The notes below the pieces were generated by a model that was given only the letters and a program-made list of their open reading frames with translations, was not told the origin of the DNA and did no database searches. A DNA stretch of 20,517 nucleotides, from assembly GCA_040904565.1 (NCBI GenBank), contig JBBDTI010000079.1, positions 50,262-70,778 of the forward strand, given 5' to 3'. Position 1 is the first letter of the stretch. Each line of letters begins with the position of its first letter. The DNA comes from Rhodothermales bacterium (GTDB lineage: Bacteria > Bacteroidota > Rhodothermia > Rhodothermales > VXPQ01). Made by a program: the position numbers and the translations under genes. Below, piece after piece: positions 1 through 17,706 of this stretch.

Positions 1-200
1 CGGACGCCGTCTTCCAATACGTTAAATTACCTTATGCGGGCGGGTCGTGCAGAACGTGTGACCAGCACGAGCCCGTAAGCCCAAAGCGCATCTGCGCGTA
101 CGTGGAACGCCTACGACGGGGGCAGGGTCGAATGGACCGATACCGGCGCCAGGGTTTACGAATAGGACCGAATGCAATTCAAGTTTGACGATACGACGCG

Positions 201-1121
201 ATGCGAGGAAAAGTAGGTATCATCGGAATGGGCTGGGTTGGATCGAGTGTAGCCATCTCGAGCCTTCACGCCGGCGTGGCCGGCGAATTACTTCTGAATG
301 ACATCCGCGGCGAGATCGCCGAAGGAGACGCGATGGATCTTGCCCACGGGGCCATGTTCTATCCGTCCGCGCGCGTACGTACGGCGGGGGTCGAAGAGAT
401 GGTCGATTGTGACGCCGTGGTCATTTCGGCGGGCCGGGGCGGCGGGCCGGAGGAGTCGCGGTTGGATTTACTGCGAGACAACGCGCGTCTCGTTCGTGAG
501 GTAGGGCGGAAGCTCTCCGGATGTAGCGGCGTCATCATCATGGTGACGAATCCCGTAGACGTATTGACGAAAGTGCTCACCGACGCATCCGGCCTGCCGC
601 CGTCGCGGGTGATCGGCACCGGCACGATGCTGGATACGGCGCGCCTTCGCCAGGTGCTGAGCGAGCGCATCAACGTCAATCCACGTTCGATCCACGCACA
701 GGTCGTCGGTGAGCACGGCGATTCGGAGGTCGTTCTCTGGTCGTCGGCCAGCGTAGGCGGCACGCCGCTGCGAGCGTGGGAGAAATGGGATGAAGCGATT
801 GAGGACGAGGTTGCCGAGACGGTGCGTAAGGCGGCTTATGAGATCATTCATCGCAAGGGTGCGACGAACCACGCGATCGGACTCGTGACGGCGGATTTAC
901 TCAAGAGCATCACGCGATCCGAGCGCCGCCTGTTGACCGTAACGCGCGTCCAGGAAGAGGTCCTCGAGCTGGACGACGTCGCGCTTTCGCTCCCGGCCGT
1001 GGTGTCCGATCGCGGCGCTACCCACGTGGTTCGTCCTGAGATGGACGAGGCGGAGCACGCGGCGCTGATGCGCTCCGTCGACGTGCTCCGATCCGCGGCG
1101 GCGTCGATCGACGGGGGATGA
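201..1121 (+). CDS. ldh: L-lactate dehydrogenase / L-2-hydroxyacid dehydrogenase (LDH/MDH family)
   Basis: Rossmann GMGWVG with a downstream Asp (LNDI), SRLDLL, VTNPVD, IGTGTMLDTARLR, catalytic GEHGD and KGATNHAIG. The specificity residue (LDH Gln102) is Gly. Confidence 0.88.
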   Translation: MRGKVGIIGMGWVGSSVAISSLHAGVAGELLLNDIRGEIAEGDAMDLAHGAMFYPSARVRTAGVEEMVDCDAVVISAGRGGGPEESRLDLLRDNARLVREVGRKLSGCSGVIIMVTNPVDVLTKVLTDASGLPPSRVIGTGTMLDTARLRQVLSERINVNPRSIHAQVVGEHGDSEVVLWSSASVGGTPLRAWEKWDEAIEDEVAETVRKAAYEIIHRKGATNHAIGLVTADLLKSITRSERRLLTVTRVQEEVLELDDVALSLPAVVSDRGATHVVRPEMDEAEHAALMRSVDVLRSAAASIDGG

Positions 1122-1172
1122 TCGAGGAGGCTGACCCGCGAGCACCGACCGGTCCGGATCGACCGGGCACCG

Positions 1173-1657
1173 TCAGTAGGCGGCGTGGAGGACGTTGAAT
1201 TCAGCCGCGTCCTCATCACGGAACCGATCCGTTCCATACCACCATCCGCCGCGGATCCTGGACGGGATGGTGTATCCGCCAAAGGTACGTTCTTCCTCCA
1301 CTTCGAATCCGTAGGGATGAGCTGCCACTGCGATACACCGACGTTGCCGTAGCGCATCATGTCAACACGCTTCAACGATCCGGTGTTATCGACGGTGAGG
1401 ATGATAGGGACGTCCTCACGATCCGTCGACACCGTTACGGTAGCCCTGTATTCGTCGATCTCCGACCAGCGTACGCGGGAGGACGGCATGAGAATCGACG
1501 GTACCCAGACGGATTCGGCTACCGATCGGTGTCGGGACGAGCGAGCGACGTCCGGACCTCTTTCGATACGAATCGGCAGGAGGCCGAATATCCTCACCCG
1601 CACGCCTCCCCTCCCCTGTAGATAGGTATCCGTGACGCGAACGGCTACGGGTCCCAT
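1173..1657 (-). pseudogene. DUF6544-like protein, frameshifted and apparently 5'-truncated
   Basis: Minus-strand frame MGPVAVRVTDTYLQGRG...AESVWVPSILMP...MRYGNVGVSQWQLI continues, after a 1-base shift at the GGG at 1314-1316, as PYGFEVEEERTFGGYTIPSRIRGGWWYGTDRF...HAAY*, with the stop at 1173-1175. There is an in-frame TGA five codons upstream of the ATG. Confidence 0.7.
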
Positions 1658-1828
1658 CTGTTCTCGACCTGATCAGGCCACGCACGCAGTCAGCATATAC
1701 CGAACGCGCCGCCCGAACAACAGATCTGCCCGGAAGATCCGGTGGGGAGACGCCCGACGGACGGACCGGGAATAGCCTCGACTCACCGGGAAGGATGCGT
1801 CCAGTGGACGAGGCCGGGACCAGCCGAT

Positions 1829-1844
1829 TCAGGGAATCCCCCAC
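1829..1844. promoter_or_regulatory. Putative operator TCAGGG-AATC-CCCCAC upstream of the CBS-usp-usp operon
   Basis: Imperfect 16-bp palindrome. Similar copies lie at 1742-1757, 1852-1867, 5537-5552 and 9524-9539. Confidence 0.5.
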
Positions 1845-1974
1845 GCTCGTTGTAGGAAATCCGCTTCGGAATGAATGCACGGCTCCACGTATGTTTATTT
1901 GTATCAGAAACCCCGCCCGCGACCGGAAGTCCAGGCGGGCCATTGGTGTTCGGGCATTAGCAACGGTGATCCGC

Positions 1975-2478
1975 ATGACGACGATAGCTGCCAATCTTAC
2001 CGCAAACGATATCATGACGACGGAGGTCGTTCCGGCCAAAGCGGACTGGCCGCTGGACCGATTGGCGGAATTTCTCATCGAAAACGATTTTTCCGGAGCT
2101 CCCGTCGTGGATGACGACGGAGCGCTGGTGGGCGTCGTCTCGCTCGTCGATCTCGTGCGGCACGACAGCCTTCCGGAGACCGTCCCCTGGACTCGCACGC
2201 TGGCGGATTACTTCCGGCACGACGAATACAAGTTCAATCTGGAAAACCAGTATGCCGACGAAGAACTGGCTATGCTTCGCGTCGATGGTGACACGACCGT
2301 CACGGTTGCCGACATCATGAATCGGGATATTTATTCCGTCGATCCCGAGACGCCCATCCAGGTCGTTGCAGACATGATGGCCGGCGGGCAGATCCACCGC
2401 GTGCTCGTTACTTGTGCCGGTGAAGTAGTAGGCGTCGTAACTACTCTGGACCTCCTCCAGATACTTCGAGAATCCTGA
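1975..2478 (+). CDS. CBS domain pair (Bateman module) protein
   Basis: TANDIMT...FSGAPVVDDDGALVGVVSLVDL and TVADIMN...IHRVLVT...VVGVVTTLDLL. Start moved from 1795 to ATG 1975, which has GGTGA at 1965-1969; the upstream 60 codons are not protein-like. Confidence 0.9.
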   Translation: MTTIAANLTANDIMTTEVVPAKADWPLDRLAEFLIENDFSGAPVVDDDGALVGVVSLVDLVRHDSLPETVPWTRTLADYFRHDEYKFNLENQYADEELAMLRVDGDTTVTVADIMNRDIYSVDPETPIQVVADMMAGGQIHRVLVTCAGEVVGVVTTLDLLQILRES

Positions 2479-2501
2479 GGTTTCGCGACCTTACATAGAC
2501 G

Positions 2502-3539
2502 ATGGCTACCGACGTGACGGATCAGGGGACCGAGATGAAGACTCCACGACGCATCTTCCATCCGACGGATTTTTCGCCGAGCGCTGACGCCGCTCTGCAT
2601 GTTGCGATCGACGCCGCTCTGCGTTTCGATGCCCCGCTTCTGGTCGGGCACGTGGTGTACGGTGGACGTTCCTATTGGGAGGTCGACCAGCCGAACGATC
2701 GTGCCGGCGTGGAGAAACGGTTGCGGGAGCATGTGGCCGAAGCGATTGGGGCGCACGGGGAGGCCACCCTCGAGCGGCTGGACGTTACCTATCACGTCAT
2801 CGAGCACGAGACCGCGCCGGCCGGCGTGCTTCATTTTGCACATGAATCCGGCATCGACCTGATTGTACTCGGCACGCACGGAAGGCGTGGCCTTCGAAAG
2901 CTGATCCTCGGGAGCGTCTCGCTTCACGTATTGCACGCGTCCAGGATCGACGTCCTGCTGGTACCGGCGACCGTCGAAGAACGGCGCGAAGGGCATCTTC
3001 TGGTACCGATCGATTTTCACGAGCGGACGCATGCCGTCGTCATGAAGGCCGGCGAACTCGCCGACGCTTACGGGTTGCCCGTTACGCTTCTTCACGTGTT
3101 GGATGCACCGGACTCTTCCCCCCTTCGAACCGGAGAGGTGCTCTCAGCCGAAGTTGCCGACCTCGATTCCGTTGCCCGCGAGCGTCTCGAAGAATTCGCC
3201 GGCGTGCTGGCCGATCATTCCGAGGTGAGCGCCCACCTGGTAACCGGCCGTCCCCAGAATGAGATAATCCGCTGGCTTAACCGTGACGACGTGCGCATGA
3301 CGGTCCTTGCGTCGGCGGGGATGACTCCGACCGAGCGTCTCAGATGGTATCCATCGGATCGCGATCTGGGCGAAGAGATCAGGTGGGCGGTGGGTCGCGT
3401 CACGGAACGCGTCGCCGTACGTTCCCCGGTGCCGGTATGGATCGTCAAGCGGTTCGAAGAGGAGCACGCGGTCTTCGACGTGCCCGACGGGATGGACGAA
3501 GCTGCAGCGTATTCATCGAGACGACAGGTACAGGGATGA
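2502..3539 (+). CDS. Universal stress protein, tandem USP domains
   Basis: RIFHPTDFS, DLIVLGTHGRRGLRKLILGSVS; second domain HLLVPIDF...GRVTERVAVRSPVPVWIV. An alternative start is ATG 2535, after AGGGG. Confidence 0.92.
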   Translation: MATDVTDQGTEMKTPRRIFHPTDFSPSADAALHVAIDAALRFDAPLLVGHVVYGGRSYWEVDQPNDRAGVEKRLREHVAEAIGAHGEATLERLDVTYHVIEHETAPAGVLHFAHESGIDLIVLGTHGRRGLRKLILGSVSLHVLHASRIDVLLVPATVEERREGHLLVPIDFHERTHAVVMKAGELADAYGLPVTLLHVLDAPDSSPLRTGEVLSAEVADLDSVARERLEEFAGVLADHSEVSAHLVTGRPQNEIIRWLNRDDVRMTVLASAGMTPTERLRWYPSDRDLGEEIRWAVGRVTERVAVRSPVPVWIVKRFEEEHAVFDVPDGMDEAAAYSSRRQVQG

Positions 3540-4495
3540 GCGACCAACAAGCCGCAACGCATGGCAAGCGTGAGAAACATTCGCTCAACGTACGGCGCAT
3601 CGTAGTGCCCACGGATCTTTCGCCCATTGCCGACGAAGCCCTTGCGCGTGCCCTTGAGATCGCGCGGCCGACGGGCGCGAGCATCGAGGTGTTGACGGTG
3701 TTGGGTCAGGTGGATGGGGACTCGTTCAATCCGATACGCTATTCCCCCGAGGCATCGGCACGTAAGGAATCGAGCACGAATCTCTTAAGGGAGTCCCTCC
3801 ACGCGCTGGTAGCGCGGCACGACACCGAAGGTGTGCAGGTCTCGGTGTCTGTACGTAAGGGACGGCCCCTGCACACCGTTCTCACCTTTGCTCGGCGCGA
3901 GCGGGCCGATCTGCTCGTCGTGGGCACGCACGATCGCGGCGTACTCCATCACTTCCTCGTCGGCAGCATGGCGGAGGAACTGGTTCGCCGTGCCCCGTGC
4001 TCCGTGCTCGTCGTGCACGAACGGGATGAGCGGCCGGCGGCCGGCGTTCGCAGCGTGCTCGTTCCGGTGGATCTGTCGGAGGCTACCGGGCATCTCCTGC
4101 GATACGCGGCGACCGTGACGATGATGCTCGATGCAAGAATGAACGTCGTCCACGTAGTCGAGCCGATCCCCGTGCTGGACACCTTCTCCGGAGCCATGAC
4201 GCTTCGGGACATGGTACCGGACATGAAGAAGCACAGCGCCGCAGAGCTTCAGAAGATGCTCGACCGGATCGATCTGAGCTTCTTTACCGACGGTGGCGAC
4301 TACGGCGTGTTCGTCGACGAAGGCCACGCCGCGTCGTCCATCGTGGATCGATCGAAGCGTGAGGAAGCGGACCTCATCATCATTGGAAAGCGAGGACGCT
4401 CGGCCATCGAGCGGTTCTTTATCGGGAGCGTCACCGAGCGCGTCGTGCGTCACGCACCATGCCCCGTACTGGTCGTAGAAACGACGGCCCCCTAA
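3536..4495 (+). CDS. Universal stress protein, tandem USP domains
   Basis: RIVVPTDLS, VGSMAEELVRRAPCSVLVV, DLIIIGKRGRSAIERFFIGSVTERVVRHAPCPVLVV. Start placed at ATG 3536, an ATGA overlap with the upstream stop, rather than 3344. Confidence 0.93.
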   Translation: MSDQQAATHGKREKHSLNVRRIVVPTDLSPIADEALARALEIARPTGASIEVLTVLGQVDGDSFNPIRYSPEASARKESSTNLLRESLHALVARHDTEGVQVSVSVRKGRPLHTVLTFARRERADLLVVGTHDRGVLHHFLVGSMAEELVRRAPCSVLVVHERDERPAAGVRSVLVPVDLSEATGHLLRYAATVTMMLDARMNVVHVVEPIPVLDTFSGAMTLRDMVPDMKKHSAAELQKMLDRIDLSFFTDGGDYGVFVDEGHAASSIVDRSKREEADLIIIGKRGRSAIERFFIGSVTERVVRHAPCPVLVVETTAP

Positions 4496-4523
4496 GTACA
4501 TCGTATTTATGAATCGATGTACT
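4495..4523. terminator. Hairpin between convergent usp genes, possible bidirectional terminator
   Basis: AGTACATCG (4495-4503) and CGATGTACT (4515-4523) form a perfect 9-bp stem that spans the whole gap. No clear U tract. Confidence 0.5.
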
Positions 4524-5451
4524 AAGTAACCGGCTGCCTGGTCTTACGGTTGGCAGAACGCTGGGACCTGTCCTCACGCTGTCCGCACGTGTTGATGAGA
4601 ATGACCGGGCATGGAGATCGTCCGACCAGCTCTTCGACGGCCTGCTCCGACGGCGAGTCCATCGACGCGAGTCCGGGAGCCTGTACGATCAATAAATCGG
4701 CTTCGTGCTCGTTGACGAATGCCAGCGTATCGTCGACCGCGTTGCCTCGGACCGGGTGCAGATGAATGTTTTCTTCATCGAGCTTCATCTCGTGGCGGCG
4801 TCGATGTCGCTCGATGATCTGCCGGAGATTTCGCTCGGTGTCGTCCCAGTCAAGCGCCGGACCGTCCGGGTCCAGACCCTCGACCTGAGCCAGCACGTCC
4901 AGCCGCGATCCAAACAGGTTGGCCACGTAGGCGGCGGCTCCGAGCACTGGTTCGATCAGATGAGCATAGGATACGAACGTTACGATCCGCTCGATGTCGC
5001 TATCGATGGCTTCCGGCCGCACGAGAGGCGGGACGATGAGAACCGGGCAGGTCGATCGGCGGATGACATCCGTCGCCACGCTGCCAAGCATGTAATCGCT
5101 CGCCTCCCCTTCCCCATGGGCGCCCAGCACGATGAAATTCATGCCCGTTTTATGGGCTTCCTGTATAATTACGGGGCCGGGAAGCGGTCCGTGACCGATG
5201 ATGAATCGAACATCTGTCGATAACCCGCCCGTGAGGGCTCGGAGTTCTTCGACGCGCTCAGCCAGCGAAGCGTCGCTCGCGGCGATCGTCTCATCAAATT
5301 CCTCGATACGATACGCTCCGACGCCGGGAACGACGTGAAGCACATCCAGGGGCACCTTGAACAGACGCGCAAGGAGAAGGGAGAACCCCATCGCATTTTT
5401 TGCGGATGGGGAAAAGTCCGTAGCGTGTAAAACGCGCTGAATCTGCAACAT
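4522..5451 (-). CDS. Universal stress protein, tandem domains with the second degenerate
   Basis: RVLHATDFS, IVLGAHGEGEASDYMLGSVATDVIRRSTCPVLIV; C-terminal ADLLIV...RSPCPVILI. Confidence 0.92.
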   Translation of the reverse strand: MLQIQRVLHATDFSPSAKNAMGFSLLLARLFKVPLDVLHVVPGVGAYRIEEFDETIAASDASLAERVEELRALTGGLSTDVRFIIGHGPLPGPVIIQEAHKTGMNFIVLGAHGEGEASDYMLGSVATDVIRRSTCPVLIVPPLVRPEAIDSDIERIVTFVSYAHLIEPVLGAAAYVANLFGSRLDVLAQVEGLDPDGPALDWDDTERNLRQIIERHRRRHEMKLDEENIHLHPVRGNAVDDTLAFVNEHEADLLIVQAPGLASMDSPSEQAVEELVGRSPCPVILINTCGQREDRSQRSANRKTRQPVT

Positions 5452-5889
5452 GATGGTCCCCGCTGATCTGGGTTACGCTAAAGAAAGTTTACGGCCACGA
5501 TTACCGAGATCGTGACGGCGTGTGCCTATGGAGGGTGGGGGAGCAACCCTGATTCGCGTGTAAGGAGAATTCGTAGCGTGCGTTGTGTTCGTAGACTGTA
5601 TTAGAGGTCGTGTTCAAAGGTCGTGCTCGACGGTGTACTCGAAATCCAGTCAATCGCAGCACCGAGGGTGCGGGAAAAACCGTACGTGCGGTTCGGTACG
5701 AACCTGCACATCCACCCTACGGGATCCCGTACAGGCGGCAGGCCGCCTATCCAATAGATTAACAAGAAATGGATGGGATACTGGTGCACCGCAACCCGGG
5801 TATCTTTACACTTGTTAGCGTGCCGGATGTTGCGCAGAAAAAAGCGTGCGACACTAGAGTATGTTGAGAAATAATCTGGAGGTCAGACG

Positions 5890-6747
5890 GTGATTAAGAG
5901 AATTCTCGTTGCGCTCGATCCGGTAAAGGATACACGGATTGCGACCCGGTATGCTAAGGAGCTTGCGCAGCGCTACGATGGGGAAGTATCCGGCCTGGCC
6001 GTCGTCGATACGCGCGGCATTTCAAAGGAAGTGGGGCCGGGCGGTGCCGTGGGCGCTATGTATTACGCCGAAAAGTTGCGTGAACAGATTACGACCGAGA
6101 GCCGGGAGGCAGCCCTGAAGCTGCTCGAAACGTTCCAGTCGGATCTGGACGCCGACGGCGTCTCGCATGCCGAGCAGGTTCGCGAAGGAGTGCCGGCCCG
6201 GCGCATCGTGGAGGATACGAAGTATCACGACGTGCTCGTCGTTGGACGCGACCCGCATTTCTACTATCCGAATCCGGACAAGAAGACCCACACGCTCGCC
6301 CAGATTGTGAAGGACGGCATCGCGCCTACATTGATCGTGCCGGATACGTATCGACAAGTCGCCAAGGCCGTCGTCGCCTACGACGGAAGCGCTGCGTCGG
6401 CGCGGACGCTGCAGCGGTACGCGCAGCTGAAGCCTTTTGGCCGCGAGACGGATCTCGAGGTCGTGCACGTCCGCGGCCGTTCGGGTGAAGACGCCCAGCG
6501 CGAGTCCGACCTGCTGCTCATGCTGGCGACGTCGTACCTGAAAGCGCACGAATTCGAGCGGGTCCACGCCTCGAGCCTGCAGTCGGACGCACCGGGCGAT
6601 GGGATTCTTTCTCACGCGCAGTCGGTGGGTGCCGACCTGATCGTGGCCGGCGCCCATTCCGTTTCGGCCATCAAGCGAATCGCGTTCGGGTCGACGACGC
6701 GGCATCTACTGGACCAGTGCGAGTTGCCGTTCTTCATCTATCATTAG
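5890..6747 (+). CDS. Universal stress protein, tandem domains
   Basis: KRILVALD, VVAYDGSAASART, ADLIVAGAHS...FGSTTRHLL. GTG start with GGAGGT at 5878-5883. Confidence 0.92.
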   Translation: MIKRILVALDPVKDTRIATRYAKELAQRYDGEVSGLAVVDTRGISKEVGPGGAVGAMYYAEKLREQITTESREAALKLLETFQSDLDADGVSHAEQVREGVPARRIVEDTKYHDVLVVGRDPHFYYPNPDKKTHTLAQIVKDGIAPTLIVPDTYRQVAKAVVAYDGSAASARTLQRYAQLKPFGRETDLEVVHVRGRSGEDAQRESDLLLMLATSYLKAHEFERVHASSLQSDAPGDGILSHAQSVGADLIVAGAHSVSAIKRIAFGSTTRHLLDQCELPFFIYH

Positions 6748-6767
6748 GCGCAGTATCGTCATAGGCG

Positions 6768-9494
6768 ATGCCGTCGGGTCCAGGTATGAATGAGGGTGTG
6801 CAGCCGGGTGTCAAGCGGGAGCAGGACGGGCCGGCGGTTGCGACCGATGACGCTCCCTGGTCTGTTTCTCCCGATGCCGTTGCGGCCTCCGCTGGAGTTG
6901 ACGTTGAAAATGGGCTGACCGACGAAGAGGCCGACGAGCGACGCCGTCGCACGGGGCCAAACGACCTGCGCCGTCGAAAGCCGCGCAGCGCCTGGTCCCT
7001 ATTCGTCGCGCAGTTTCGGAGCCTGGTCGTCGCGCTCCTCATAGGTGCCGCGGTGGTGGCGTTTGCCTTCGGCGAAAATCTGGAAGCGTGGGCCATCGTC
7101 ACGGTCATTGCGATCAACGCGGCGCTGGGGTTTATTACGGAGCTCCGCGCCGTTCGCTCGATGGAGGCGCTGTTCGCGCTTTCGAGGGTAACGGCGCGCG
7201 TGCTGCGCGGCGGTGGGACCCGAGAGATAGACGCCGTCGAACTGGTTCCGGGCGACGTGGTCGTGTTGGCAGGCGGCGATCTTGTCCCTGCGGATATGCG
7301 GCTGATTACGGCCTCGAAGCTGCAGGCGGATGAATCGAGCCTTACGGGTGAAAGCATGCCCGTGGGGAAATCTATCGACCCGGTGGACGCGGGGTCGGCG
7401 CTCGCCGAACGCTCGTCCATGTTGTACAAGGGTACGTCCGTGACGCGAGGTTCGGGCGTCGCCGTCGTAACGCAGACCGGGATGCGCACGGAGCTGGGCC
7501 GCATCACGGAACTCGTCGCCGAAGCCGTGGAGGAGCGCACGCCGCTCGAGGTTCGGCTCGATGCGCTGGGACGGAAGCTGATCTGGGTCACGCTCGGCAT
7601 CGCCGCGCTTGTGAGCGGTGCAGGTATCCTGCGAGGGAAGGACCTCTTCCTCATGATAGAGACGGGCATTGCGCTGGCGGTGGCTTCCATTCCTGAGGGG
7701 CTGCCCATTGTCGCTACTATCGCGCTGGCTCGCGGCGTACGCATCATGGCGCGGCGCAACGCTCTGATCAACCGGCTGTCCTCCGTCGAGACGCTAGGGG
7801 CCGCAGGTGTAATCTGCACGGACAAGACGGGCACGCTTACTGAAAACCGGATGACCGTCGTGCGCCTTGCCGTCGCCGGCAAAGATGTCCGACTGGATGA
7901 AGAGGAGGGGTTCGAGACAGAGATTGCCGGGGATCTAACATCCGCCGTCCGCTCCGCCCTGGAGGTGGGTGCGCTGTGCAACAATGCAACACGCGCCGAA
8001 GACGGTGAGACGTCCGGAGACCCCCTCGAAGTGGCCCTGCACGCTGCTGCCGCCGGGTTCGGTATCAAACAAGGCGATCTCCTGACGGATTGTGAACGCG
8101 TCGACGAGGAGGCTTTTGACGCGGATGTAAAGATGATGGCCACCGTGCATCGTTGCGGAGATCGATATCGATACGCCGTAAAGGGAGCGCCGGAAGCCGT
8201 GCTCGAGGCATGTGGGTACGAGCAAACCGATGAGGCAGCCTCTCCGCTGGACGAAAGCCGTCGCGCTGCGTGGGAGGAAAAGAATGAAGCGCTTGCCGCG
8301 GGTGGACTGCGAGTACTGGCGCTGGCCGAGAAGTACTCCGACAGTAGGGAGGACGCCCCGTACGAGGGGCTCGTCATGCTCGGCCTCGTAGGCATGGCCG
8401 ACCCGCCGCGCTCGGACGTGCGCCCATCGATCGAGCGGTGCAAGTCGGCGGGCATCCAGGTCGTGATGGTTACGGGCGATCAGCCGGTAACCGCGCTCGG
8501 CATCGGACGTGAAGTCGGACTGGTGGACGAAGGAGAGGACCTGGTCGTACGAGGAAATGAGCTGCCGGCAATGGACTCAGCCACCGACGAGCAGAAAGCT
8601 CGGCTCCTCCGCGTTCCGATCTTCGCTCGCGTGACGCCCGCACAGAAGCTCGATCTGATTGCGCTTCATCAAGGGGGTGGCCACGTCGTCGCCATGACGG
8701 GGGACGGCGTTAATGACGCCCCGGCACTGCAAAAAGCTGACATCGGTATTGCCATGGGACGCCGCGGCACCCAGGTCGCCCGTGAGGCGGCGGATATGGT
8801 CCTGCAGGATGACGCGTTTTCAACCATCGTGGCCGCGGTGGAACAGGGCCGGATTATTTTCGGAAACATCCGCCGATTCGTCCTCTACCTGCTGTCCTGC
8901 AATGTCAGCGAGGTGATGGTCGTTGCGGCGGCGACGCTGGTAGGTGGTCCATTACCTTTGCTGCCCCTGCAGATCCTGTTCCTCAATCTCGTGACCGACA
9001 TCTTCCCCGCCCTGGCTTTGGGTGTGGGGGCGGGCGATCCGGCCGTCATGAAACGCAAACCTCGCGCGGCGAACGAGCCCGTGCTCTTGAGGCGGCACTG
9101 GTTGGTTATCGCCTTCTACGGCGTCCTGATGACGGCTTCCGTTCTCGGTGCGCTGTTCGTCGCCTTGAACGTACTGCATCTCCCGGCTGAAGAGGCGGTG
9201 ACGCTTTCGTTCCTCACGCTTGCCTTTGCACAGCTTCTGCATGTGTTCAACATGCGTTCGAAGGATTCTAGCACGTGGAAGAATGAGGTGGTCCAGAACC
9301 CTTTCGTGTGGGGAGCCATCGTCCTGTGCACGGGACTCCTGCTCGGTGCCGTCTACGTACCCGATCTGGCAGAGGTGCTCAGCGTACACCGGCCGGACGC
9401 GATGGGCTGGCTTACCGTCGCCGGATTCAGCCTGATTCCGCTCGTGGTCGGGCAGGTCGTTCTGATCCTTGGGGGAAACACCGCGGTAGAATGA
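6768..9494 (+). CDS. Cation-transporting P-type ATPase, P2A (SERCA/CtpF/PacL-like, probably Ca2+)
   Basis: DESSLTGES, IPEGLP, phosphorylation motif ICTDKTGTLT, KGAPE, DPPR, MVTGD, MTGDGVNDAPAL, YLLSCNVSE and LNLVTDIFPALAL. An alternative start is ATG 6786. Confidence 0.96.
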   Translation: MPSGPGMNEGVQPGVKREQDGPAVATDDAPWSVSPDAVAASAGVDVENGLTDEEADERRRRTGPNDLRRRKPRSAWSLFVAQFRSLVVALLIGAAVVAFAFGENLEAWAIVTVIAINAALGFITELRAVRSMEALFALSRVTARVLRGGGTREIDAVELVPGDVVVLAGGDLVPADMRLITASKLQADESSLTGESMPVGKSIDPVDAGSALAERSSMLYKGTSVTRGSGVAVVTQTGMRTELGRITELVAEAVEERTPLEVRLDALGRKLIWVTLGIAALVSGAGILRGKDLFLMIETGIALAVASIPEGLPIVATIALARGVRIMARRNALINRLSSVETLGAAGVICTDKTGTLTENRMTVVRLAVAGKDVRLDEEEGFETEIAGDLTSAVRSALEVGALCNNATRAEDGETSGDPLEVALHAAAAGFGIKQGDLLTDCERVDEEAFDADVKMMATVHRCGDRYRYAVKGAPEAVLEACGYEQTDEAASPLDESRRAAWEEKNEALAAGGLRVLALAEKYSDSREDAPYEGLVMLGLVGMADPPRSDVRPSIERCKSAGIQVVMVTGDQPVTALGIGREVGLVDEGEDLVVRGNELPAMDSATDEQKARLLRVPIFARVTPAQKLDLIALHQGGGHVVAMTGDGVNDAPALQKADIGIAMGRRGTQVAREAADMVLQDDAFSTIVAAVEQGRIIFGNIRRFVLYLLSCNVSEVMVVAAATLVGGPLPLLPLQILFLNLVTDIFPALALGVGAGDPAVMKRKPRAANEPVLLRRHWLVIAFYGVLMTASVLGALFVALNVLHLPAEEAVTLSFLTLAFAQLLHVFNMRSKDSSTWKNEVVQNPFVWGAIVLCTGLLLGAVYVPDLAEVLSVHRPDAMGWLTVAGFSLIPLVVGQVVLILGGNTAVE

Positions 9495-9523
9495 CGCCTT
9501 CTCGATCGCGCCGGGCGCCCATG

Positions 9524-9539
9524 TCATGAAATCCCCTAC
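9524..9539. promoter_or_regulatory. Putative operator TCATGA-AATC-CCCTAC
   Basis: 13/16 identical to the site at 1829-1844; intergenic. Confidence 0.5.
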
Positions 9540-9609
9540 ACGGGGGTCCTCTATATCCCTTCATGTCGGGCCGTGATTTCTGTTGAAATGGCTGTTCGGC
9601 CGGTCGCTA

Positions 9610-9618
9610 TGCTATAGT
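9610..9618 (+). promoter_or_regulatory. Extended -10 promoter element TGcTATAGT
   Basis: TGn plus a 5/6 match to TATAAT, upstream of the 9701 ORF. There is no good -35 at 17-bp spacing. Confidence 0.4.
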
Positions 9619-9700
9619 CAGAACGAGAAACGCCGGGCGGGGCCCGGTGCAGTGAAGTTCAGGAAGACCCTACGGACGCTTAGTCGTGGAGGATGCCGCC

Positions 9701-9961
9701 ATGCTAGATAAGCCCATCATCGACCGAGAGAAGATGCAGAAGGACGACGAGCGCCGCCAGCTCGTCATGGACGTGGCGGAGAAAGCATCGCGCCTGCTGG
9801 GTCCCGGAGAAACGCTGAACCGACCCGTCCGAAAGGACGACCGCATCATTTTCACCGTTCAGCACGGTCGGGGTACGGAGCGGCGCATGCACCGGCCGAT
9901 ACCGTCCGTTAGAGAAAGGTCCGTCCGCTACACGGCGTGGTTCGAGAATGGTGTGATTTGA
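9701..9961 (+). CDS. Small hypothetical protein (86 aa)
   Basis: ATG 9701 is preceded by GGAGG at 9688-9692, codons are GC3-rich and the ORF sits in an otherwise empty gap. No family recognised. Confidence 0.65.
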   Translation: MLDKPIIDREKMQKDDERRQLVMDVAEKASRLLGPGETLNRPVRKDDRIIFTVQHGRGTERRMHRPIPSVRERSVRYTAWFENGVI

Positions 9962-9969
9962 TGTTTCCG

Positions 9970-10290
9970 CGGCGGCATTGAGATCGTGCCCTCGTGGTGG
10001 CGGCGGGACCCGCGAGGGTACCTGAGAACCGCCGGCGTCGTCGTACACGCGATGCGTGCGCGGCGAAACCGCGCGGCGCGGGGGTAAAAGGCGGCAGTCG
10101 GCTCGTCCGACCCGCCTCCTGGAGGTCGTGACCCTGGGGGAGGGTTGCGACCTCCTACTGTTACCCCCATCCCCGCGAGCAGAGTATGGTGCGAGTAGAG
10201 TAAGTACGACCGCGTAGTTCATTCCCCTACGCGGCTACCAGCGATACCGGACAGACGGCGCGTCCGGTGCACTACGGCGCATAGGGGCGC
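9970..10290 (+). ncRNA. Candidate structured RNA element of unknown family
   Basis: Nested stems: 9986-9997/10010-10021, 10040-10046/10204-10210, 10058-10063/10069-10074, 10080-10087/10161-10168, 10089-10101/10107-10117, 10121-10135/10141-10155, 10210-10217/10227-10234 and 10246-10252/10262-10268. Mismatches read as G-U on the + strand. Confidence 0.4.
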
Positions 10291-10406: not shown

Positions 10407-11006
10407 ATGAAGAACTCCCCTGTGCTGTCTATCCTCGTGCTCTCCTTTATTTTGATCGCTGCCACCTGGTCGGCCGATCCAACGCAGATGACGATAACGC
10501 CTGAAAGTCGCATGTGGGTCGACGGAACGTCGACCGTGCACGACTGGACGTGCGATGTCGGTGAGGTCGACGGCAACGTGACGCTGGATGCCGAAACCGG
10601 TGCCGTGTCGAAAGCCGCCGTCACCGTTGCCTCGTCGTCGATTGAATGCGACAGCCGCACGATGAACAGGAAGGTCGCCGAGGCTCTGGCCATCGATGAT
10701 TTCCCGGTCATTCGCTATACCCTGAGTACGGCCGATGTCATGAGTTCCGGCGAGGAGCTGCGTATCGACGCCGTGGGCACCCTGGAGCTGGCGGGTGCCA
10801 GCAAGGAAATGAGCTCGAGCCTGGTCGGGCAGCCTGCTTCGGAAGGCGGTTACGTGTTTACGGGTACCCTGCCGATCACGATGTCGACCTTCGACATCGA
10901 TCCGCCGACCGCCATGTTCGGTGCCCTCAAGACGGGAGACGACGTAACGGTTCGGTTCGAGATCTACGCCGTTCCCGGGAGCGGTAGACTGTCTAGTGGG
11001 CAGTAA
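10407..11006 (+). CDS. YceI-family polyisoprenoid-binding protein, secreted
   Basis: Signal peptide MKNSPVLSILVLSFILIAATWSA; ESRMWVDGTSTVHDW, FPVIRY, GTLELAG, FDIDPPTAMFGALKTGDDVTVRF. Start moved from 10329 to ATG 10407. Confidence 0.9.
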   Translation: MKNSPVLSILVLSFILIAATWSADPTQMTITPESRMWVDGTSTVHDWTCDVGEVDGNVTLDAETGAVSKAAVTVASSSIECDSRTMNRKVAEALAIDDFPVIRYTLSTADVMSSGEELRIDAVGTLELAGASKEMSSSLVGQPASEGGYVFTGTLPITMSTFDIDPPTAMFGALKTGDDVTVRFEIYAVPGSGRLSSGQ

Positions 11007-11044
11007 ACGCGAACGGGGCCGTGGTGCACGAGTCAATAAATCCG

Positions 11045-11068
11045 GGTCGCCGGACTTGACCGGCGACC
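11045..11068. other. Intergenic hairpin
   Basis: GGTCGCCGG-acttga-CCGGCGACC, a perfect 9-bp stem between yceI and usp. It has no U tract, so it may be an mRNA stabiliser or processing site. Confidence 0.45.
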
Positions 11069-11089
11069 ATCACATGAGAGGGATTTGAT

Positions 11090-12004
11090 ATGCGCTTCAA
11101 CACAATTCTCTTTACAACGGATTTTTCTGACTGTGCGGAGCGAGCCTTCTCCCACGCGTCCCATCTATCCGCTCGATACGATGCGCACCTTCACGTGCTG
11201 AATGTGGTGCCTCCGGGTCATTCACCGGATGAAGGACCGCTGGCCTATATGGACCTGACGAAGGAAGAGGATGTCTGGACCGATGCGTACCAGGCGGACG
11301 CGGAGGATGGCGTAGCCGTCGTTCACAGCAGCATCAAGGCGGCCTCTGCGGTGGAGGGCATCCTCGAATATGCCAAGTCGTACGACGTCGACCTCATCGT
11401 CATGGGTACGCACGGCCGCACCGGCATCGACCATCTGCTGTCCGGCAGCGTAGCGGAAGACGTCGTTCGACATGCGTCGTGTCCCGTGCTGACGGTCCGA
11501 TGCAGCGAGCGTGCCGGGTGGAAGGAACAGGTCAACAGAATCCTCGTGCCGGTTGATTTTTCCGAGCATATGGCCGTCGGGCCGGCTCTGGAGCTCGCGC
11601 GAATATACGGTGCGGAGGTCGACCTGCTTCACGTCATCGAAGAGGCCGTGTTGCCGACGATCTACGGCGTCGAACCACTCTCGCCCGGGGCCCCGCTCTA
11701 CGTGCAGCGGACGGAAGGTGCATTGAGGAAAGCAGTCGAGGATTTCGATACGGAGGACCTGGAGATCCGTGCGCACGTGCGGATCGGAAACCCATCCCGA
11801 CGCATTCTCGAGTTCGCCGAGGAAGATCGATGCGACCTCATCGTGGTGGCTTCGCAAGGACGAACGGGACTGGGGCGTCTGCTGATGGGTAGCGTGGCCG
11901 AAAAGGTCATTCGTCTGTCGGAGGTTCCCGTCTTTACAGTCAAACGTGGCTCCGGATTGGGAGATGCTGCAAACGGACACCGGCCGGACGCGGACGAGAA
12001 ATAG
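11090..12004 (+). CDS. Universal stress protein, tandem USP domains
   Basis: TILFTTDFS, DLIVMGTHGRTGIDHLLSGSVAEDVVRHASCPVLTV, RILVPVDFS, ASQGRTGLGRLLMGSVAEKVIR. Confidence 0.95.
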   Translation: MRFNTILFTTDFSDCAERAFSHASHLSARYDAHLHVLNVVPPGHSPDEGPLAYMDLTKEEDVWTDAYQADAEDGVAVVHSSIKAASAVEGILEYAKSYDVDLIVMGTHGRTGIDHLLSGSVAEDVVRHASCPVLTVRCSERAGWKEQVNRILVPVDFSEHMAVGPALELARIYGAEVDLLHVIEEAVLPTIYGVEPLSPGAPLYVQRTEGALRKAVEDFDTEDLEIRAHVRIGNPSRRILEFAEEDRCDLIVVASQGRTGLGRLLMGSVAEKVIRLSEVPVFTVKRGSGLGDAANGHRPDADEK

Positions 12005-15955: not shown

Positions 15956-16318
15956 CTAGACCGCTTCCGGTGATACCGGGGTTACCGCAGCGGCATCTTC
16001 CTCTCCCGTGCGGATGCGGTAGACTTTGTCGACGGGGAGAACGAAGATCTTGCCGTCACCGACGTCGCCCGTTCGGGCGGCCGATAGGATGGCCTCGACG
16101 GCACGCTCCACGTACGATTCGGTCACGCCGATGTCGAGCATAATCTTATCCGTCAGCTCCATCTTGACGGTTGTGCCGCGGTACGTTTCGACCTGCTCGG
16201 TTTCACCACCGTGGCCGCGTACGCGGGTGACCGTTAGGCCCTGCACGTCGGCCTGAAAGAGGGCGATGAGCACGGCGTTGAGTTTGTCTGGACGGATGAT
16301 GGCCTTTATCAATCTCAT
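15956..16318 (-). CDS. glnK: P-II family nitrogen regulator, GlnK
   Basis: AIIRP, YRG in the T-loop, K58, ARTGDVGDGKIFV and RIRTGE; directly downstream of amt. Confidence 0.95.
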   Translation of the reverse strand: MRLIKAIIRPDKLNAVLIALFQADVQGLTVTRVRGHGGETEQVETYRGTTVKMELTDKIMLDIGVTESYVERAVEAILSAARTGDVGDGKIFVLPVDKVYRIRTGEEDAAAVTPVSPEAV

Positions 16319-16356
16319 GGTTTTTCTCGGTCTATCTGGTAGGTGGACGGGTTTGC

Positions 16357-17706
16357 TTAGCGGGAGGCGGACGTAGCCGGTGTAGCCGTCATCTCGTTGC
16401 TGAGAAGCAGCACGGCACCTTCACCGTCCGTGTAGGCTTCCTCGCCATGGTTGGAAATGTCCATCCCCAGGCCTTCCGTGGATTCGTCGGGGCGGAGCGC
16501 CATCACCAGGCTCAAACCCTTCAGGATCAGGAATGTCGAGAGACCACTGTACGCCAGCACGGCTACGATCGACACGAACTGAATCCAGAGTTGGCCGGCA
16601 TTTCCGAAAAGGAGTCCGTCCGCCGCGCCGCTCCAGGCGCTCTGCGCAAACACGCCCGTGAGCAGGGCGCCGGTCATGCCGCCGATGCCGTGTGCGGCGA
16701 ACACATCGAGCGAATCGTCGAGGCGCGTCCGCGCTCTCCACTGAATCACATAATAGCTTGGAATGGCGGCGATGGCTCCCAGTGCGAGCGACGACATGGG
16801 CGAAATGAATCCGGCGGCGGGCGTAACAGCAACGAGGCCTACCACGATGGCGGTCGCGCCACCGACGGCCGTTACTTTGCCCGTCCGCATGATTTCAATA
16901 AGCGTCCACATGGCCAGCGTAGCGGCGGGTGCCAGCATCGTATTCACGAGTGCCAGCGAGGCGATTTCGTCCGCCGCCAGCGCACTTCCGCCGTTAAAGC
17001 CGAACCATCCGAACCAGAGGAGCCCGGCGCCCAGCAGCACGAACGGTACATTGTGCGGGAGGAGGGCCTGCCTGCCGTAGTCTTTTCGAGTACCCAGGAA
17101 GAGCGCTGCCACGACAGCCGCCGCGCCTGCATTGACGTGTACGACGGCGCCGCCGGCAAAATCGAGTGCGCCCAGGTCGCCGAGCCAGCCACCACCCCAC
17201 ACCCAGTGGCATACGGGTGCATAAACCAGCAGACTCCAGAGCACCATAAACATGAGATACGCGGGGAAACGCATCCGCTCAACGACCGCGCCCGAAATGA
17301 GGGCTACCGTAATGATGAAGAACGTTCCCTGAAACGCCATGAACAGCAGGTGGGGGATCGTACCGCTCGCTTCCAGTCCGACGCCGTTCAAAAAGACCAT
17401 CGACAGGTCACCGAAAAAGCTGGAGCCTTCTCCAAAGGCCAGCGAGTAGCCGATGATCGCCCAGAGCACGCCGGCAACCCCGAGAGCCACAAAGCTCATC
17501 ATCATCGTGTTGAGTGCGTTCTTGGAACGAACGAGGCCCCCGTAGAAGAAGGCGAGCGCCGGCGTCATCAGCAAGACGAGCGCCGTGGACATCAACATCC
17601 ACGCCGTGTCGGCGCCGGAGATGCCTGATTCCGCAGCGGCATCCTGCGCGAACGCCGGCTCTGCAAGCGCTATCAAAGTGAGAGTAAACAGTAGAATGCG
17701 ACGCAT
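16357..17706 (-). CDS. amtB: Ammonium transporter Amt
   Basis: Signal peptide ending AFA-Q; FYGGLVRSKN, ISGAVVERM, DFAGGAVVH, LWFGWFGFNGGS and DDSLDVFAAHG, so both pore histidines are present. Confidence 0.96.
   Translation of the reverse strand: MRRILLFTLTLIALAEPAFAQDAAAESGISGADTAWMLMSTALVLLMTPALAFFYGGLVRSKNALNTMMMSFVALGVAGVLWAIIGYSLAFGEGSSFFGDLSMVFLNGVGLEASGTIPHLLFMAFQGTFFIITVALISGAVVERMRFPAYLMFMVLWSLLVYAPVCHWVWGGGWLGDLGALDFAGGAVVHVNAGAAAVVAALFLGTRKDYGRQALLPHNVPFVLLGAGLLWFGWFGFNGGSALAADEIASLALVNTMLAPAATLAMWTLIEIMRTGKVTAVGGATAIVVGLVAVTPAAGFISPMSSLALGAIAAIPSYYVIQWRARTRLDDSLDVFAAHGIGGMTGALLTGVFAQSAWSGAADGLLFGNAGQLWIQFVSIVAVLAYSGLSTFLILKGLSLVMALRPDESTEGLGMDISNHGEEAYTDGEGAVLLLSNEMTATPATSASR

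Follow-up and report, generated by a model that had tools for sequence, protein, structure and literature searches.

The window and its genes

We analysed a stretch of 20,517 nucleotides from the 4.0-Mb genome of a Rhodothermales bacterium (contig JBBDTI010000079.1, here C79, positions 50262-70778), which is referred to below as the window. An earlier note on this DNA had listed nine copies of a 16-bp palindrome in the promoter regions of a stress gene cluster, and the present work concerns the nature of this element and the regulator that would bind it. The window encodes a lactate dehydrogenase, a CBS protein, five universal stress proteins (USP), a P-type ATPase, and a YceI protein, and it forms the right half of a gene island of ∼33 kb. 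In the left half of this island we found a kinase with GAF, PAS, and HisKA_3 domains (C79:29767-31389), a receiver-GerE regulator (C79:31386-32036), and a heme-copper oxidase, which is probably of the ba3 type. This half also contains usp, a sulfide:quinone-reductase-like flavoprotein, cytochrome c, a Sec-dependent nosZ with nosLDFY, an ECF sigma factor, and hsp20.

The shared element is an odd-centred palindrome of 19 bp

All nine 16-mers quoted in the earlier note are present at the positions given there. As 16-bp palindromes, none of them matches at more than 9 of 12 positions, a level that is reached 1,295 times in the genome, and the list by itself therefore proves little. The element was defined anew from related genomes. 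For training we used 40 loci around orthologues of the island's receiver-GerE regulator, being the top 40 regulator matches (from 38 of the 47 genomes with this regulator), of which 36 had usable intergenic DNA; locus L028, which has a lower GC content, was excluded because its gene calls were unusable. Genes were called, spaced dyads were counted in 239 intergenic regions of the relatives, and expectation-maximization (EM) was then applied. The top de novo dyads (CCCC-TACA, TAGG-N9-TACA, and TAGG-N7-CCTA) all describe one palindrome, and the EM consensus was the odd-centred 19-bp sequence TGTAGGGGA(A/T)TCCCCTACA, with 15.2 bits in the DNA of the relatives.

A spacing test gave a clear preference for this length. 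In the intergenic training DNA the 19-bp spacing had 57 matches versus 1.9 in shuffles, and the 18-bp spacing (the even register plus the outer bases) had 9. A held-out set of 60 loci, left from 80 after removal of 20 for DNA overlap with the training set, gave 76 versus 2.45 matches at 19 bp and 6 versus 3.05 at 18 bp; the 18- and 20-bp spacings were near background. An excess at 17 bp (15 and 21 matches) was rejected as a separate form, as it consisted mostly of slipped 19-bp sites, with 13 of the 21 matches overlapping one. The even 16-bp palindrome reached 8.8 bits, and unconstrained models of width 16 or 18 converged on pieces of the 19-mer. The earlier note was thus right that a palindromic element is shared and wrong about its length and symmetry. 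In the held-out loci, 75 sites of at least 12 bits were present in 46 of the 60 loci, versus 1.45 sites in shuffles. Since related genomes are not independent, the training and held-out counts overstate significance; the loci span 37-79% GC, and the palindrome is conserved across this range. A likelihood comparison with shuffled sequence was uninformative (EM drifted to the site-frequency cap), and tests with a fixed matrix were used instead.

Strong sites are concentrated in the promoter regions of the island

Copies in the window were scored with the matrix from relatives only, and ranks were taken among 4.0 million genome positions (Table 1). The earlier note had named the lack of an excess over shuffled DNA as a refutation of its reading, and an excess was found: the six promoter-side intergenic regions of the window contain four sites of at least 8 bits versus a shuffle mean of 0.42, with none of 500 shuffles reaching four, and an excess was also seen in the held-out loci of relatives. 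For the 15 promoter-side gaps of the whole island the numbers were nine sites versus 0.76, with none of 500 shuffles reaching nine. At 12 bits or more, the 4.1 kb of gaps in the island hold five sites and the other 434 kb hold 20, and the 203 convergent gaps of the genome contain no site at this level. The top nine sites are all intergenic, and three of the genome's four best lie in the island; these include C79:37711, before cytochrome c-nosZ (rank 3), and C79:34834, flanked by the oxidase genes and ygaP-usp (rank 4). Genes near other top sites encode pyruvate:ferredoxin oxidoreductase, acetate-CoA ligase with phosphoenolpyruvate (PEP) synthase, an NrfC/NrfD-like pair, cardiolipin synthase, SulP, a second PAS kinase, and RIC.

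Table 1. Candidate sites, predicted promoters, and predicted target genes, in window coordinates. Offset, distance in bp to the predicted -10 hexamer; negative numbers, approximate promoter positions.
Feature	Position	Strand	Remarks
Strong primary operator	9522..9540	+	20.8 bits, rank 2; centre 77 bp before -10, ∼-89; upstream of 91-aa ORF
Weak secondary operator	9545..9563	+	4.4 bits; 23 bp downstream of 9522; ∼-66, offset 54 to TATGCT; absent from the earlier list
Predicted -10 hexamer TATGCT	9608..9613	+	Offsets 77 and 54 from 9522/9545, the two peak offsets of the family
Primary operator, CBS-usp-usp operon	1827..1845	+	12.2 bits, rank 59; ∼-66, offset 54 to TATGTT
Weak, likely secondary operator, CBS-usp-usp operon	1851..1869	+	3.9 bits; ∼-42, offset 30 to TATGTT; 24 bp from 1827
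Predicted -10 hexamer TATGTT	1890..1895	+	Offsets 54 and 30 from 1827/1851
Weak, likely operator, minus-strand usp gene	5536..5554	-	3.6 bits; ∼-66, offset 54 to TAAACT
Weak, likely operator, minus-strand usp gene	5559..5577	-	3.5 bits; ∼-89, offset 77 to same TAAACT; 23 bp from 5536
Predicted -10 hexamer TAAACT	5486..5491	-	Offsets 54 and 77 from 5536/5559
Good operator upstream of yceI-usp	10213..10231	+	14.1 bits, rank 22; no plus-strand TAnnnT at a family offset
Doubtful copy	97..115	.	8.5 bits, rank 414; toward ldh no -10 at a family offset
Doubtful copy	1741..1759	-	6.9 bits, rank 964; TATGCT at offset 53 toward DUF6544-like gene
Copy, probably chance	9656..9674	+	2.5 bits, rank 7,362; in leader, downstream of predicted -10
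CBS-domain protein and two tandem-USP proteins, predicted target operon	1975..4495	+	Pfam CBS and Usp; start 1975 from gene calls
Tandem-USP protein, predicted target	4522..5451	-	Pfam Usp
usp and CtpF-like P-type ATPase	5890..9494	+	Pfam and NCBIfam; cluster member, only very weak promoter sites
91-aa orphan ORF, predicted target	9686..9961	+	ORF; follows the genome's best-scoring operator ladder
YceI-like and tandem-USP proteins, predicted target operon	10407..12004	+	Pfam; start codon read from sequence

Sites form a 23-bp ladder at fixed distances from predicted promoters

Tandem sites, which the earlier note had suspected, are a feature of the whole family. Secondary sites were found 23 bp from strong ones at 6 of 105 positions in the training set and 8 of 138 in the held-out set, and 24 bp away at 4 of 105 and 2 of 138, with at most two at any other distance. 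The same note had seen a 23-bp offset in two pairs of copies; the period is real in the family and holds for 5536/5559, whereas 1827/1851 are 24 bp apart in the 19-bp register. Among 74 oriented sites of relatives, the promoter-proximal half-site is better conserved, and a TAnnnT hexamer starts at offset 54 in 13 cases, at 77 in 12, and at 78 in 7, compared with a mean of 0.83 per offset. The sites lie ∼31, 54, 77, or 100 bp before the -10 hexamer and a median of 149 bp before start codons. This placement is activator-like, with the -10 hexamers being predicted ones. If the hexamer starts at -12, the rungs of the ladder would be centred near -66 and -89, and by extension near -43 and -112.

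The source genome, which was not part of the training set, behaved in the same way: among 4,650 candidate hexamers, 29 scored at least 10 bits in register versus 2 out of register, although this test is not fully independent for the two outer rungs, which show only faintly in relatives and were included on the basis of the genome's own sites. A generic sigma-70 scan was of no help (2 promoters versus 2.2 by chance). The promoter of site 9522 ranks first of all candidate hexamers and that of site 1827 ranks ninth; the promoter of 5536/5559 ranks 44th, at a level where the control still shows background (7 bits or more: 44 in register versus 17 out). Since a random position fits the four main offsets in 3.9% of cases, the in-register distances of 1851, 5536, and 5559 indicate that these weak copies are likely real secondary sites. 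Copy 97 has a TAATTT at offset 77 that points left (window 24-115), into a scaffold gap of ∼100 N (C79 ∼50163-50261), and a regulated gene on that side may be absent from the assembly.

These distances also bear on the possibility that the palindromes are remnants of REP-like or mobile elements (GTAG-type repeats), or chance occurrences in GC-rich DNA. The arms start with GTAGGG, which resembles GTAG-family REPs, and six of the nine listed copies score below 9 bits. However, the copies are few and degenerate, are absent at 12 bits from all convergent gaps, keep fixed distances to -10 hexamers and start codons, and are conserved from 37% to 79% GC. REP/BIME repeats occur as many near-identical extragenic copies, also downstream of genes, a pattern not seen here. 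This explanation is largely refuted for the strong copies, and as a whole we give it a minute probability; chance is the best account of 9656 and a plausible one of 97 and 1741. The earlier note had allowed for this among its weaker copies, and one to three of its nine are probably chance matches.

A NarL-type regulator and its kinase track the motif

The earlier note had assigned the motif to one NarL/FixJ/LuxR-type regulator encoded outside the window, possibly nearby. A NarL-type regulator and a kinase, namely the pair described above, are indeed encoded 18 kb upstream of the window in the same island, and the concentration of the motif around their orthologues argues for this pair as the probable link. 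Orthologues of the regulator with 59-91% identity were found in 47 of 60 relatives, and their recognition helix is almost invariant. Close orthologues occur in Rhodothermales, Salinibacter-type, and Balneolales genomes, with Roseithermus, Salinibacter, Salinivenus, and Aliifodinibius being cultured members among the orthologue-bearing matches. The kinase was found at high score within the class only (23 of 251 genomes of a phylum sample, the source genome included), and an Atlas search gave generic families and a Balneolota cluster only.

The usual neighbours of the pair in 100 loci are usp (40), ccoN (22), acg (17), yceI (14), and ldh (13). No other regulator was recognised among the 45 commonest protein clusters, an assessment based on the starts of the sequences and, for part of the clusters, on family scans. 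With counts that include the training loci, a site lies upstream of 17 of 19 ccoN genes, 12 of 18 regulator genes, 31 of 53 kinase genes, 6 of 10 acg, 7 of 15 yceI, and 18 of 41 usp genes, versus 57 of 492 other genes. The enrichment upstream of usp and respiratory genes, for which the earlier note had proposed a test, is seen in the relatives; the ldh genes of relatives had a site upstream in 0 of 8 cases. In the source genome a site precedes the cytochrome c-nosZ operon, and among five nos-containing loci of relatives the same holds for at least two (L035 and L068), L125 being a third candidate.

Presence of the motif also followed presence of the regulator. Consensus matches numbered 123 versus 23 for a reversed control in the 47 genomes with the regulator, and 6 versus 3 in the 13 without it. 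Five of these 13 genomes were rechecked and lack both proteins, and the three consensus matches examined in two regulator-less genomes are all inside open reading frames (ORFs). The element thus combines an inverted repeat that is conserved and enriched in promoters, a fixed position relative to predicted -10 hexamers, and a linked receiver-GerE regulator that tracks the motif, weakly so in the second order of the class, as expected for an operator of the NarL/GerE type. We conclude that the link between box and regulator is likely, and that the kinase is predicted to sense oxygen through heme.

Several observations weigh against this assignment. Eleven of the 13 negative genomes belong to one genus, so that the co-absence rests on few lineages, and 10 of the 47 regulator-bearing genomes contain no match at up to 3 mismatches. 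In the second order of the class, matches with 1 mismatch numbered 6 versus 1 for the control with the regulator and 2 versus 8 without it; with 2 mismatches, at which the degenerate pattern is too noisy, the counts were 45 versus 33 and 75 versus 86. For usp upstream regions, the numbers with a site were 3 of 20 versus 0 of 20. This contrast has the same direction but is small. In the source genome, no site was found at the kinase operon itself (best score 1.8 bits in the nearest upstream gap), several top sites precede genes of no obvious oxygen link, and a TAnnnT at a family offset is missing for two strong sites, 10213 and C79:34834. Furthermore, loci of paralogous regulators hold strong sites too (2.45 per 100 kb at 16 bits, versus 7.21 near the orthologues), and some paralogues have the same recognition helix.

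Several paralogous NarL-type regulators with similar helices might read the box, or a different one such as C72:24438-25133 might be its main reader; the box, though real, would then be a subfamily element that integrates several signals instead of a single oxygen operator. A site of at least 16 bits is present in 6 of 20 paralogue loci, helices of the type S-x-KT-x-ESYRARIK occur in several paralogues of relatives, and the C72 paralogue has an 18.8-bit site directly upstream, at offset 30 from a -10 hexamer. However, 13 of the 20 loci have no site of at least 13 bits, and the only two with several sites of at least 16 bits (L213 and L223) each hold a heme-PAS kinase pair of their own, next to ccoN or to hsp20 and PEP synthase. 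In addition, the site at L214 lies at a usp gene, and the other three NarL-type regulators of the source genome have different helices. We consider a shared or different reader rather unlikely. More generally, the richest paralogue loci are second heme-PAS pairs or usp loci, and sites at others precede large kinase genes (CheB-like or hybrid, as judged from sequence starts) that may be downstream targets.

Two groups of these loci deserve a description of their own. At L045 (G000:C72:24438-29181) in the source genome, and at L215, L218, and L229 in three relatives, a strong site lies upstream of either a second NarL-type regulator or a large kinase gene next to it, which suggests a second regulatory tier. 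In L213, L223, L026, and L043 of some relatives, second copies of the regulator lie beside ccoN or hsp20/PEP synthase genes and have the same box, in L213 and L223 together with a heme-PAS kinase.

The kinase resembles a heme-based oxygen sensor

The PAS domain that adjoins the transmitter of the kinase matches the FixL structure (PDB 1d06, E 3.7e-36), and it retains the proximal heme histidine and the distal IIGIGR loop. This His/IIGxGR motif is present in 73 of 87 kinases and occurs once in the source genome. The transmitter is of the HisKA_3 type, and the closest structures to the regulator are DevR (E 3.8e-27) and NarL. Although the kinase has a GAF domain, no DosS/DosT structure matched at E 1e-8, and the conserved sensor is the PAS domain. 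Among the orthologues in loci L004-L141 the N-terminal input region varies widely in length, and the core of heme-PAS and HisKA_3 is conserved; the called orthologues, some of them fragments, are 258 to 891 aa long. By analogy with FixL, and in view of the target genes, the kinase would sense oxygen through its heme and the system would be activated at low oxygen.

The regulator could be the right one and its signal mainly something other than oxygen: the heme could read NO, CO, or redox state, or the variable N-terminal GAF/PAS domains could supply an input. DosS and DosT respond to NO and CO too, nosZ and the Fe-S repair protein RIC lie near strong sites, and the variation in kinase length implies that extra inputs differ. 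Yet the PAS domain retains both the proximal histidine of FixL and the distal arginine of IIGIGR, the high-affinity cbb3 oxidase has a site more constantly than any other target (ccoN, 17 of 19), and the RIC gene is oriented away from its in-register hexamer. We regard a signal other than oxygen as quite improbable.

Taking these results together, we estimate a probability of roughly three in four that the 19-bp box is the operator of the C79:31386-32036 regulator and that its partner kinase, C79:29767-31389, binds heme and senses oxygen, with low oxygen activating the associated promoters. Following the FixL precedent, oxygen bound to the PAS heme would keep the kinase off; in the deoxy form the kinase would autophosphorylate and then phosphorylate the regulator. 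As in the DosR system, a phosphorylated dimer would bind the strong site and recruit further dimers to weak sites 23 bp away, and dimers on rungs near -43, -66, -89, and -112 would activate a promoter of the sigma-70 type. Predicted targets in the source genome are usp, CBS, hsp20, yceI, the ba3 oxidase region, and cytochrome c-nosZ, as well as pyruvate:ferredoxin oxidoreductase and acetate-CoA ligase with PEP synthase. A FixK/Fnr relay would apparently not be needed, and in relatives the pair may often regulate itself.

Comparison with known systems

The proposed system probably works like mycobacterial DosR with a FixL-type sensor, while belonging to neither family. It shares with DosR/DevR of Mycobacterium tuberculosis the combination of a HisKA_3 kinase with a NarL-type regulator, and a similar list of predicted targets, with usp, hsp20, acg, a CBS protein, and a CtpF-like ATPase. 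It differs in further predicted targets, which here include cbb3/ba3 oxidases and nosZ, and probably in the sensor: the heme of DosS and DosT sits in a GAF domain, and that of the present kinase is predicted to sit in a FixL-type PAS domain. The Dev box is moreover an even 18-bp palindrome and the present box an odd one of 19 bp; a DosR or RcsB box, the parallels named in the earlier note, was rejected as the identity of the window element. Excerpts of one study describe direct control by DosR through strong and weak tandem sites next to the promoter (PMC3177182). Primary and secondary sites are likewise found in tandem here, with a period of 23 bp compared to 21 bp for DosR (-42.5/-63.5) in the same excerpts (PMC3177182).

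With FixL-FixJ of rhizobia and Caulobacter, the likeness lies in the PAS domain of the kinase, which at the sequence level aligns to FixL with its heme histidine and IIGIGR loop, and in a low-oxygen output that includes ccoNOQP. Whole-protein scores are far under the family cut-offs (148 versus 850 for FixL, NF041777; 80.9 versus 255 for FixJ, NF006900), and the transmitter is HisKA_3 here and of the HisKA type in FixL. The FixJ site TAAGTAATTTCCCTTA, as given in part of one report, resembles the half-site found here (PMC4999443); the full FixJ site is even (TAAG-N8-CTTA, 16-18 bp) and the present box odd (TAGG-N7-CCTA) (PMC4999443). FixJ acts mainly via fixK, according to portions of two papers (PMC4999443, PMC13327599), whereas no FixK-type protein was found in the source genome, which is 95% complete.

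The staphylococcal NreB-NreC pair consists of a cytoplasmic PAS-HisKA_3 oxygen sensor and a NarL-type regulator with a TAGGG...CCCTA palindrome. NreB holds a 4Fe-4S cluster ligated by four cysteines, and the NreC box is TAGGG-N4-CCCTA. The PAS domain of the present kinase contains no cysteine, and the spacer of its box is 5 bp rather than 4 bp.

The lxa locus of Burkholderia cenocepacia has a similar gene content: as far as sections of PMC3721108 describe it, this island contains usp among other genes, its promoters have a motif in common, and it is induced at low oxygen. The lxa motif, TGA-N6-TCA, is Anr/Fnr-like (PMC3721108), and the similar gene content raises the possibility that an Fnr/FixK/Crp-type protein acts downstream of the kinase pair and binds the motif, as in FixLJ-FixK or lxa. 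However, no Crp/Fnr helix-turn-helix exceeded the cut-off in the source genome (95% complete) or in the 18 family members scanned, and within the order only 17 of 61 genomes had one. The island contains no Crp box and no excess of Fnr-like boxes, and the motif is unlike TGA-N6-TCA. Such a relay is in our view very improbable.

For the pair itself as the direct regulator, we lean on balance towards a wider claim, namely that it serves the class Rhodothermia (Rhodothermales, Salinibacter, and some Balneolales) as a master low-oxygen switch that has not been described before. In it, a FixL-like heme-PAS sensor would be joined to an output of the DosS/DosR type and replace Fnr/FixK, and it would act through a new 19-bp box and its 23-bp ladder to control directly the high-affinity oxidases, a DosR-like dormancy set, and clade II nosZ. 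The system suggests a separate origin for a DosR-like regulon, with a sensor and a box unlike those of DosR. No description of the system was found in open-access full text, and supplements and regulon databases outside this coverage may list the motif. The logic of a two-component system with a palindromic operator is familiar, but for oxygen control the analysis predicts a regulator with its signal, its binding site, and its targets, in a class for which the literature found describes none. Control of the Sec-dependent clade II nosZ matters for N2O sinks, and the proposed switch, if true, would provide a concrete oxygen-control mechanism for N2O reduction in Rhodothermia.

Other features of the window

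The 91-aa orphan ORF behind the best-scoring ladder matched no Pfam family, and tblastn found no counterpart in the retrieved loci or in the rest of the genome; its promoter may instead drive a longer transcript that reaches yceI, or a small RNA. Upstream of the usp-ATPase genes the best site scores 2.8 bits (5668, offset 78 to TAGATT). This region (5668-5760, plus strand) may contain a very weak, unproven three-rung ladder at 5668/5690/5715 (2.8, -2.5, and -4.7 bits), in register with TAGATT at 5755.

The P-II and ammonium transporter pair at 15956-17706 (minus strand) is ordinary, lies outside the island, and is without the motif. The DUF6544/DUF6920-like gene at ∼1170-1657 (minus strand) looks broken: its profile match covers no more than positions 74-178 of 221, and its tail may be a 51-aa ORF that lies in another frame. 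Finally, a perfect inverted repeat, CACGAT-N7-ATCGTG, is located at 5496-5514, between the operator pair and the predicted -10 hexamer of the minus-strand usp gene.

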